Below are positions 27,834 through 30,193 of a stretch of 64,000 bases of DNA, piece by piece. This DNA comes from Alloascoidea hylecoeti (Eukaryota). Location: NCBI GenBank assembly GCA_001600815.1, contig BCKZ01000009.1:584194-648193 (forward strand), in the 5' to 3' direction. Under the pieces are notes generated by a model, which worked only from the letters and a program-made list of their open reading frames with translations, searched no databases and had not been told where the DNA came from. Numbering within the stretch: the first letter of the stretch is position 1; each line of letters opens with the position of its first letter. The translations under genes were made by a program, and so were the position numbers.

Positions 27834-28541
27834 TTAACGATTAGATTTGGCGACACGTTCTAACTCATCCTTCTTCTTAATAGCATAAGAATTAGATGAA
27901 CCCTTGGCTGCATTAATCAATTCTTCGGCAAGACATTCTGCAATTGTTTTGATGTTTCTGAAAGAGGCTTCACGGGCACCAATAGTGAGTAGCGAAATAG
28001 ACTGGTTAACTCTTCTCAATGGGGAGACATCGACGGCTTGTCTTCTGACTGTACCACTTGATCCGATTCTTGTTGAGTCTTCTCTTGGACCTGTATTGAT
28101 AATAGCATCAACAACAATTTGTAATGGGTTTTGATCGGTTGTGATATTAATAATTTCCAAGGTGTGCTTTACAATTTTGACGGCCTTTAATTTTTTACCG
28201 TTGTTACGACCATTCATCATCAAAGAGTTTGTCAAACGTTCGATAATTGGGCACTGTGCTTTTCTGAAACGCTTAGCAGCATATCTTCCAGCAGAGTGGG
28301 ATGTGAAAACAGGCTGTCTAATTTGAATGTAGTCTGTAAGAGAAATGTCTTTGATAGTGACATCCTCAAAGGTCCATTCGTTGAACAATTTAACGCTTCC
28401 TGCAGCGGCCTTAACATCTTCTGGAAGAGTAGTAGCAAGTTGAACTTCTGGAAGTTGTTCTTCTTCAAATTCTTCGACTTCTTCGACTTCTTCGACTTCC
28501 TCGACTTGCTCGACAGGGGTGGTCTCTTCAATATCGGACAT
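27834..28541 (-). CDS. RPS5: 40S ribosomal protein S5 (uS7), intronless
   Basis: [28 protein letters not shown]...[10 protein letters not shown]; acidic VEE-repeat N-terminal extension. Confidence 0.98.
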
Positions 28542-28589
28542 TTTGTTTGTTTGTTGGAACGGAAAGAAGCTCTGTTCTTCAAAGTGTAG

Positions 28590-28689
28590 TGCGTCGCGCT
28601 TCTCGTTGTGACTGCATTATACGAATTAGCCCTAATATATAACACGTGCTTTAATACACGTAACATCCGTACATCCGTACATATGTACG
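28590..28689. promoter_or_regulatory. RPS5 upstream element cluster
   Basis: GACGCA on the - strand (28590-28595), TGTGACTG (28607-28614), TAGCCCTAA (28627-28635), CACGTG (28643-28648), and two overlapping ACATCCGTACAT (28663-28674, 28671-28682). Confidence 0.7.
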
Positions 28690-28765
28690 CCATAGTTATT
28701 TGGTATATCGAATTATTTTATTTTTTAATACATGTATATACAAACGTTATTTACTTAAACTACTC

Positions 28766-30193
28766 TTATCTACTTCTTTGATCAATATCCCAAAAAAACA
28801 AGCCCATCCCAACATCAAGTAAGATAGAGAATAACCCACCGATAGGAAAAGCAATTGCTAATCTACCAGATTCTGCTAATCTACCAGTTAACAATGGCCC
28901 AATGCACCTCGCAAATGTCTTTACGATATTAACAATTCCAAGAACTTTTGTTAATTCATTTTTCTTCACCAAAGTTGTCATTAGCACTTGTCTTGGTACG
29001 ACATCCATTGTTGACAATGATGAATTTAAAAGTAAAAAAGTTAACGACAGTGGTAAAGAAGAAGTTGAAGATATCAAAGCTCGGAAAATATTGGATGGTG
29101 CATGAGTAAATATTGTCGCTTTAACTGGGCCTATCTTTTTTGTAAGATAAGAAGATGGAAGAGATGTGCAAGCATCGAGAATATTTGTACTAAAAAATAT
29201 TGTACCCAAAGCTCCTGCTGAAGCGTCAAATTTGATTTTAAAAAAGTAAACGACCCATGATTGGGGTATAACTCCATATCCCAAAGAATCTAAAAAGAAT
29301 AATATTGAAAGCCGAAATACAGTCCTTTTAGTTTCTGGACTGAGACCTAAAATTGGTACATTAATATTGTCTCTAATTTCTTGGGCAGTAGTATTTGTTC
29401 CAGTTACCGCTTCCGAACTCTTTTTTGGTAATAAAGCTTGGGTTTCATCGACTATGGGAGCTTCTCGTCTATCATATGTTGTAGATGATGAATAAACATA
29501 TGCATCTGAAATTGATGATTCTGTTGCCGTTATCACATTAATATTTGAATTCCCTTCGATCTCATTGTCTTCTGCGTCCAATTCACAATTCGCCGAGAGG
29601 AATAACATCGTAATAAATTTAATAGCGGCTATTGCGGAATATAATAAGAATATAAACCTATATGAATTGTCACTACTCCATGATCTATTTTGTAGAAGTT
29701 GTAATATCCATCCTCCGGATAGTGAGCCTATTGCCCCACCGATGGTCCCAGACAAGTTGTACCAGGCATAAACATCAGCACGCAATTCATATATTGTCAG
29801 GTGGGCAATAGCAGCTTCTTCAACAGATTTAAACGGACCAGTCTCATCACCACTAGGAGATATAACGCCAATTGTCGCAGCTATCAATAGAATCCAAAAA
29901 TTATCGCTGAAGTAGAAGATGAGACCACTAATAAACATCAAGAAAGCTCCCAGAAGCATAACGTTCCGCCTACCTATATTATCAGCATACCATGTGAGAT
30001 AGTAACTTATTGCGACATCGCCGACTAGAGTGAGAGTCATGAAAAGGCCAACTTGGGACTCCGAGACCGTTGGAAAAGCCGTGAGAAAAAGAGTTAGGAC
30101 TAGAGTCGTTTGACTATAGGCAATCATTCGCAAAAGCCGCGAAAGTATAAGAATGTAAACATCTAGAGAAATCGTTGAAACCGGCGGTAACAT
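28766..30193 (-). CDS. MFS transporter, YJR124C-like
   Basis: Multiple hydrophobic TM segments; GLFMTLTLVGDV, TWYADNIGRR and GVISPSGDETGPFKSVEEAAIAHL match the YJR124C family. Confidence 0.85.
   Translation of the reverse strand: MLPPVSTISLDVYILILSRLLRMIAYSQTTLVLTLFLTAFPTVSESQVGLFMTLTLVGDVAISYYLTWYADNIGRRNVMLLGAFLMFISGLIFYFSDNFWILLIAATIGVISPSGDETGPFKSVEEAAIAHLTIYELRADVYAWYNLSGTIGGAIGSLSGGWILQLLQNRSWSSDNSYRFIFLLYSAIAAIKFITMLFLSANCELDAEDNEIEGNSNINVITATESSISDAYVYSSSTTYDRREAPIVDETQALLPKKSSEAVTGTNTTAQEIRDNINVPILGLSPETKRTVFRLSILFFLDSLGYGVIPQSWVVYFFKIKFDASAGALGTIFFSTNILDACTSLPSSYLTKKIGPVKATIFTHAPSNIFRALISSTSSLPLSLTFLLLNSSLSTMDVVPRQVLMTTLVKKNELTKVLGIVNIVKTFARCIGPLLTGRLAESGRLAIAFPIGGLFSILLDVGMGLFFWDIDQRSR

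Follow-up and report, generated by a model that had tools for sequence, protein, structure and literature searches.

The rewiring of ribosomal protein (RP) genes from Tbf1/Cbf1 to Rap1, a textbook case of transcription-factor substitution, raises the question of how a stoichiometric regulon can traverse a mixed state, and the RPS5 promoter of the yeast Alloascoidea hylecoeti is considered here in that context. The original prediction, made from the letters of a 64-kb stretch of this genome (the window, 64,000 nucleotides), placed five motifs known from different fungal RP systems in one promoter, namely Homol-D, a Tbf1 site, a Cbf1-type E-box, two overlapping Rap1 boxes and an Fhl1-like GACGCA, and suggested that they may preserve a redundant intermediate of the rewiring, with Rap1 sites present earlier than usually assumed. 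Here we place this promoter within its own regulon and compare that regulon with the known systems.

Organism, gene set and controls

The A. hylecoeti genome measures 24.8 Mb, and the window has a GC content of about 33%. RPS5 and VPS4 are at most ~88% and ~82% identical, respectively, to those of named yeasts of any clade, the two 99% RPS5 matches being the organism's own paralog RPS5b. In an RPS5 tree (35 rows, midpoint root), A. hylecoeti comes out with the crown group on one side and the early clades (Lipomyces, Tortispora, Nadsonia, Yarrowia and Dipodascales) on the other, with the flanking splits supported at 96/93 and 98/94; this placement comes from a single gene, and a quick VPS4 tree left the position unresolved. 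We take the position to be that of the Alloascoideales/Sporopachydermiales. Both orders are described in the available part of PMC11182611. On the one gene, the lineage lies outside the Candida+Saccharomyces split. The standard code ascribed to this yeast agrees with both VPS4 CTG codons aligned with leucine (2/2, a thin sample), and its description as intron-rich with introns in many RP genes. In several of these the start codon itself is split by an intron (A/TG or AT/G; loci L039, L042, L043, L062, L063, L151 and L051, including 5'-UTR cases), and 5'-UTR introns occur in RPS22, RPS26, RPL32, RPL40 and RPL43. Many RP genes are duplicated (RPL30, RPL8, RPS4, RPL14, RPL26, RPL27, RPL35, RPL23, RPL40, RPS9, RPL18 and RPL13), and RPP1 and RPP2 have three copies each.

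An RP promoter was taken as the 300-bp stretch ahead of the start codon or, in genes with a 5'-UTR intron, ahead of the first 5' splice site. Seventy were collected, 21 by protein family, three as neighbours, 30 via Tbf1 patterns, 13 via the E-box-Tbf1 composite and two via the Rap1 box, in addition to RPS5. The gene names were mostly assigned by recognising the translations, with 17 Pfam-checked besides RPS5. The RPS15 and RPL24 genes were omitted from the counts because their promoters are common with counted genes. As controls served 114 promoters of similar GC content above ORFs of at least 150 aa, taken from the window and from regions sampled evenly to a total of 400 kb, after removal, before counting, of probable downstream exons, RPS5 and an RPS5 shadow frame. 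Genome-wide motif counts were compared with reversed-pattern controls.

The RPS5 promoter

A motif scan of the spacer 28542-28765 recovered all predicted motifs at their sites (Table 1). The cluster, which had been placed within about 95 bp, 50-140 bp above the ATG, is real but slightly wider, spanning -49 to -148. On the gene strand, the order from distal to proximal is Rap1 boxes (-141 to -122), E-box (-107), 8 bp, Tbf1 half-site (-93), Homol-D (-73) and ATG, and the Rap1 boxes lie 84-103 bp from the stop of the tandem transporter gene.

Table 1 Features of the RPS5 locus (positions in the window)
Feature	Position	Strand	Remarks
RPS5 (uS7) coding sequence	27834..28541	-	235 aa, intronless (Pfam PF00177 Ribosomal_S7, E 2.7e-40)
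RPS5 promoter	28542..28765	-	224 bp; shared with the tandem MFS gene as its 3' region
GACGCA, Fhl1-like	28590..28595	-	-49..-54 from ATG; probably chance
Homol-D box TGTGACTG (CAGTCACA on gene strand)	28607..28614	+	perfect Rrn7-matrix match; 21 bp downstream of Tbf1 site
Tbf1 site	28620..28635	-	TTAGGGCT half-site of the local palindrome TAGGG-N5-CCCTA, whose second half is degenerate here; TTAGGGCTA at 28627-28635
E-box CACGTG	28643..28648		separated from TAGGG downstream by exactly 8 bp; Cbf1-type part of a composite with fixed spacing
Two overlapping Rap1 boxes ACATCCGTACAT	28663..28682	+	oriented opposite to RPS5; score 13.2 and 11.1 of 14.8 with the Rap1 matrix
14-bp palindrome CGTACATATGTACG	28676..28689		no sign of separate function
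MFS transporter gene, tandem, upstream of RPS5	28766..30193	-	Pfam MFS_1

When the spacer was shuffled 20,000 times, at most two of the five motifs came together and three were never reached; likewise none of the 114 control promoters carries more than one of the five, and none of the other 69 RP promoters more than three. This makes RPS5 the extreme member of its own regulon. The genome has a second RPS5 gene, RPS5b (L061, contig 31; 231 aa, identical to protein P0004), whose promoter keeps the same element order, CATGTG-N8-Tbf1-Homol-D, and has no strong Rap1 site (matrix score 4.8).

Two components of the cluster look like chance. GACGCA, put forward as an Fhl1-like regulatory site, occurs in 1/67 RP promoters vs 5/114 controls and was discarded as a regulon feature, and the 14-bp palindrome, one of 14 perfect palindromes of this length in the window, was rejected as a functional part. 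Compared with the 114 controls, RP promoters showed no enrichment of the Hmo1/IFHL motif (2/50 vs 4/114), the Fhl1 matrix (3/50 vs 8/114), or the Dot6/PAC and Sfp1/RRPE motifs, and a motif scan of the RPS5 promoter found no Homol-E.

Homol-D and Tbf1 sites across the regulon

The enrichment that had been proposed as a check was seen for Homol-D, which is specific to RP genes across the regulon: the 7-mer GTGACT[GT] lies in 16 of the 21 family-found RP promoters vs 4 of 114 controls (p 4e-13), exact CAGTCACA in 8/21 vs 0/114, and the 6-mer in 19 of 24 motif-blind RP promoters, while the match quality of the RPS5 copy to the Rrn7 matrix is equalled in none of the 114 controls. Thirty RP promoters have both elements; in 28 Homol-D is the downstream one, and in 26 it lies 10-60 bp from the Tbf1 site. 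Its median position, counted from the start codon or the first 5' splice site, is -116. It is present in 11/12 Tbf1-less and 27/55 Tbf1-bearing RP promoters. Judged by these matches, Homol-D is the common proximal element of the RP promoters, and de novo k-mers in RP promoters returned at the top only Homol-D and Tbf1 motifs.

The Tbf1 site claimed at RPS5 likewise represents an RP-specific motif, TAGGGCT being found in 8/21 family-found RP promoters vs 1/114 controls, but at RPS5 it is only a half-site, with two mismatches in the second half. Genome-wide, TAGGGCTAWWNCC has 18 matches vs 3 for the control, 16 of the 18 at RP genes, and the palindrome TAGGG-N5-CCCTA has 67 vs 34, with RP genes at 30 of 48 loci. 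The N6 palindrome, the form of C. albicans, stays below its control (27 vs 40) and was rejected as the Tbf1 site of A. hylecoeti. Genes for a Tbf1 protein with TRFH and Myb domains (L119) and for Ifh1/Crf1 are present.

Among metagenome RPS5 loci, of which 46/80 had enough upstream DNA, N5 was seen at one locus identical to Geotrichum candidum and at two of probable filamentous ascomycetes, and N6 at two of CUG-clade-like yeasts and two more distant loci; with one promoter per organism, these counts are indicative only. N5 is probably the older Tbf1 spacing, shared beyond A. hylecoeti, as these single promoters suggest.

An E-box at a fixed distance from the Tbf1 site

The E-box had been attributed to Cbf1, and a Cbf1-type E-box is indeed a regulon-wide RP element as part of a fixed-spacing composite, though not as a bare hexamer. 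The RPS5 hexamer is missing the leading T of Cbf1's consensus, tCACGTG, its matrix score (6.7 of 10.2) is equalled by 18 of 114 controls, and bare CACGTG is not enriched (10/50 RP promoters vs 13/114 controls); its presence was therefore rejected as a regulon feature, the spacing alone being informative. CAYGTG lies exactly 8 bp before TAGGG in 5/37 non-query promoters (1/20,000 in a jitter test), and this composite has 27 matches genome-wide vs 1 for the control, 19 of the 27 at RP genes. Out of sample, RP genes were found at 13 of 21 new loci, six of those 13 being Pfam-checked.

As at RPS5, the second Tbf1 half has at least two mismatches in 15 of the 19 composite RP promoters. These sites are mostly half-sites beside an E-box, which suggests that a bHLH factor makes up for the missing Tbf1 half. 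The same CACGTG-8 bp-TAGGGC half-site composite also stands upstream of a metagenome RPS5 orthologue of a CUG-clade-like yeast (L213). Three non-RP loci (L176, L177 and L181/L133) resemble one another in a stretch with an E-box, TAGGGG and then a second AGGG..CCCTA, and this stretch is possibly a small repeated element or a non-coding RNA promoter.

Rap1 boxes and Rap1 proteins

The two RPS5 boxes (28663-28674 and 28671-28682) form an 8-bp tandem duplication with a 4-bp overlap and probably correspond to one occupancy. The claimed Rap1 box is a real promoter motif genome-wide, its exact 12-mer having 28 matches vs 1 for the control, mostly in promoter regions, but it is not regulon-wide: scored with the published matrix of Sorrells 2018 (supplement 4, PMC6173580), sites of at least 9 occur in 10/63 RP promoters vs 10/114 controls (p 0.12), those at the 6.0 cut-off in 15/50 vs 23/114, and strong sites in the later, larger RP set in 12/67 vs 10/114. 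Only four of 27 exact-box loci are at RP genes (RPS5, RPL43, RPS18 and RPS9a), the other 23 not being RP promoters, and a strong site is present in ~9% of control promoters vs ~1% of shuffles. A fixed order and spacing, also suggested as a check, was seen for Rap1 and Tbf1 in sample (5/37; 1/300 motif shuffles) and failed out of sample: the Rap1-then-TAGGG composite has 7 matches vs 1 genome-wide, with RP genes at none of the three new ones, and a fixed Rap1-Tbf1 distance was rejected as unconfirmed.

The proposed check of the protein turned out in favour of a DNA-binding-type Rap1. The full-length gene (L030:754-3132, contig 10) encodes BRCT_2, Myb_Rap1, Rap1-DNA-bind and Rap1_C (= RCT) domains in Pfam, and both Myb stretches match structures of S. 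cerevisiae Rap1. RAP1 is duplicated, the short copy (L029:997-1995, contig 7) having the double Myb only, without BRCT and RCT, and being 70% identical to the full-length protein over the 155 aa of the double-Myb domain. A Rap1 homologue search returned a single identical protein. A connection of the Rap1 box with telomeres was also considered, and no telomeric array was found at the 20 ends of the 10 largest contigs.

Tbf1 or Rap1 upstream of Homol-D

Strong Rap1 sites are unevenly distributed over the RP promoters. A matrix score of at least 9 is reached in 7/12 Tbf1-less but 5/55 Tbf1-bearing RP promoters (p 4.9e-4 in a post hoc test with only 12 Tbf1-less promoters, RPS9a being omitted as found via its own Rap1 site; p 3e-3 at cut-offs of 7.4 and 11). 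Against the controls (10/114), the Tbf1-less promoters are enriched (p 1.2e-4) and the Tbf1-bearing ones are at the control rate. Within the first 21 RP promoters alone the split gives p 0.046-0.20, and of the three Tbf1-less neighbours added after the idea had formed, two have a Rap1 score above 11. Among the 24 motif-blind RP promoters, 12 have Tbf1, eight have Rap1, one has both and five have neither. Paralogs also differ: RPP0a/b, RPL27b/a and RPS9b/a each split into one copy with Tbf1 and one with strong Rap1.

Taken together, the RP regulon is likely a gene-by-gene mosaic of Tbf1 or Rap1 on a shared Homol-D, in which RPS5 supplements the standard module with a Rap1 site and would rank among the few promoters that hold both inputs. 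The predicted redundancy, with old and new regulator sites together at most RP genes, is not borne out, given the single motif-blind promoter with both Tbf1 and Rap1. As a preserved intermediate of rewiring, the regulon fits in so far as Rap1 sites mark a subset of RP genes outside the Candida+Saccharomyces split, but it is not uniformly redundant.

Several further arrangements were observed at RP loci. The two RPP0 copies are near-identical and inverted, ~3.5 kb apart (L040/L041, contig 6:357547-364300), and alike up to ~120 bp above the ATG; farther up, a Tbf1 palindrome stands in one copy and a Rap1 site in the other, with Homol-D following in both. The divergent pairs RPL30-RPL24 and RPP2-RPS15 (L033/L035, L039/L043) each exist in two copies, and the RPL30-RPL24 spacers contain Homol-D and a Reb1-like TTACCCG without Tbf1 or Rap1. 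Mcm1-type sites (matrix score of at least 6) are enriched at RP promoters (21/67 vs 8/114, p 2.7e-5), for example at L051 (RPL43), L055 (RPL23a), L058 (RPL2), L146 (RPL42), L188 and L195 and not at RPS5, and eight promoters that lack Homol-D have them 17-39 bp downstream of the Tbf1 palindrome. These are possibly another gain of Mcm1 sites like those of Sorrells 2018.

Alternative explanations

That short motifs came together by chance in a spacer richer in GC holds for GACGCA and the palindrome; as an account of the cluster it is extremely improbable, and for Homol-D, the Tbf1 site, the E-box and the Rap1 box it is refuted by the shuffles and by the genome-wide enrichments over reversed-pattern controls. 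A redundant intermediate, with every system present in RP promoters as a rule and each motif able to replace the others, is decidedly unlikely. RPS5 with all five motifs would fit it, as would the 15/50 RP promoters that show three motif classes at lenient matrix cut-offs and the five other RP promoters with Tbf1 and strong Rap1, but Tbf1 and Rap1 coincide in so few motif-blind promoters, Rap1 is no more frequent beside Tbf1 than in controls, and Fhl1 and IFHL/Hmo1 are not enriched.

A more serious contender, though in our view rather doubtful, is that the Rap1 boxes are real but serve no RP regulation, acting as a nucleosome displacer or as a roadblock or insulator against MFS read-through, with the regulon being plain Tbf1/Cbf1 and Homol-D. 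The exact boxes are indeed mostly at non-RP genes, strong sites exceed the shuffles even in controls, the RPS5 boxes occupy the spacer's distal edge and are missing from RPS5b, and the Rap1-Tbf1 composite failed out of sample. This leaves unaccounted for the excess of strong Rap1 in Tbf1-less RP promoters, including the later-added neighbours, and the paralogs that split Tbf1 vs Rap1. Finally, the elements could be read by other binders, with another bHLH factor on the E-box, the short Rap1 paralog on the ACATCC box and a factor other than Rrn7 on Homol-D. The E-box often lacks the Cbf1 T and a second, double-Myb-only Rap1 exists, yet many composite matches read TCACGTG or CACGTGA, and a Tbf1-Cbf1 partnership at RP genes is established for C. 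albicans in the available parts of PMC2834713 and PMC2607300, which makes this reading unlikely. We favour the Tbf1-or-Rap1 mosaic.

Discussion

We propose that the cluster serves RPS5 as its upstream activating region and adds a Rap1 site to the usual RP-promoter grammar of A. hylecoeti. In this grammar, the upstream slot usually holds either Tbf1, as TAGGG-N5-CCCTA or as E-box-N8-half-site, or Rap1. If the factors act as they do in C. albicans and S. cerevisiae, Cbf1 would bind beside Tbf1 and stabilise it on a weak half-site, and Tbf1 or Rap1 would open the promoter and tether Fhl1-Ifh1, while the Homol-D factor, Rrn7 in S. pombe, would position initiation or set the core promoter. At RPS5, where the Tbf1 half-site is weak, the Rap1 boxes may supply further activation, or they may stop transcription running on from the MFS gene; roadblock termination by Rap1 is known in S. 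cerevisiae.

The RPS5 promoter resembles the C. albicans Tbf1-Cbf1 module placed on a Homol-D core, and by its motifs it belongs to none of the pure systems. With the Rap1-Hmo1-Fhl1-Ifh1 system of S. cerevisiae it shares an RPG-box-type Rap1 site ~130 bp upstream of RPS5, but Rap1, found there in most RP promoters, is present in only about one third of those of A. hylecoeti (8/24 motif-blind, 12/67 overall), and IFHL/Hmo1 and Fhl1 are not enriched. Redundant intermediates with Homol-D and Rap1 were reportedly proposed by Tanay, Regev and Shamir in 2005, and the co-occurrence of Rap1 and Homol-D is alike. As in C. albicans (Lavoie 2010, PMC2834713), RP promoters have enriched, palindromic Tbf1 sites and an adjoining E-box coupled to them (putative Cbf1), and a Tbf1 protein is encoded; the available part of that paper describes a required TTAGGG-N6-CCCTAA, no Rap1 at RP promoters and the tethering of Fhl1-Ifh1 by Tbf1, whereas A. 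hylecoeti has an N5 spacer, frequent half-sites beside the E-box, Homol-D, and strong Rap1 in 8/24 motif-blind promoters. CAGTCACA is, as in Schizosaccharomyces (Diao 2014, PMC4138321), the most widespread RP element, and the accessible text of that study reports Homol-D enriched in five non-fission species as well; unlike in Schizosaccharomyces, it has a partner in A. hylecoeti 10-60 bp upstream, either a Tbf1 palindrome or a Rap1 site.

Another parallel is Hansenula (Ogataea) polymorpha (Malyavko 2019, PMC6510891), a standard-code yeast outside the Saccharomycetaceae with duplicated RAP1, a near-identical Rap1A motif and a Cbf1 motif. According to the available part of that paper, Rap1A/Rap1B occupy about half of the RPG promoters by ChIP, a state termed intermediate, with ancestral recruitment proposed; Tbf1 sites are lacking and Homol-D is not among the motifs listed there, whereas both dominate in A. 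hylecoeti, whose second Rap1 differs in having neither BRCT nor RCT. Sorrells 2018 (PMC6173580), in the text available, has Rap1 RPG sites gained once, in the ancestor of all Saccharomycotina, and Cbf1 as older; in agreement with our data, Tbf1 and Rrn7 (Homol-D) are pre-existing RPG regulators there and Mcm1 sites were gained near Tbf1/Rrn7. The genome list in this text includes Sporopachydermia and not Alloascoidea, and the text lacks the per-gene Tbf1-or-Rap1 split and the 8-bp E-box-Tbf1 composite. The idea that Rap1 arrived earlier than usually assumed thus agrees with Rap1 sites in an outside lineage but is not new, having been published already (PMC6173580, PMC6510891). Early Rap1 and mixed promoters are a known idea, and the mosaic architecture is a variant that, like the 8-bp composite and the N5/N6 contrast, was not found in the literature searched, although some of it may appear in Tanay 2005, in Hogues 2008 or among the Sorrells 2018 figures.

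The 8-bp composite and the N5 vs N6 spacing lead to predictions on Cbf1-Tbf1 cooperativity and Tbf1 dimer geometry, and RPP0a/b, RPL27a/b and RPS9a/b, near-identical in their coding sequences and different in their upstream motifs, offer natural test pairs for interchangeability. In a broader reading, which we consider possible and put forward tentatively, A. hylecoeti would keep a long-lived split regulon just outside the Candida+Saccharomyces split, in which Tbf1 (with Cbf1 at a rigid 8 bp) and Rap1 are interchangeable in one slot upstream of a shared Homol-D, trading places from one gene to the next and even within paralog pairs, and in which Mcm1 comes in as a further partner; the circuits of C. 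albicans and S. cerevisiae would be opposite sortings of an ancestral mosaic and not a one-way substitution. Mixed states are suggested to be unstable and transitory in the available part of Lavoie 2010 (PMC2834713); if the split-regulon reading is true, it would argue against this instability, and RPS5 would be a promoter caught with both occupants.
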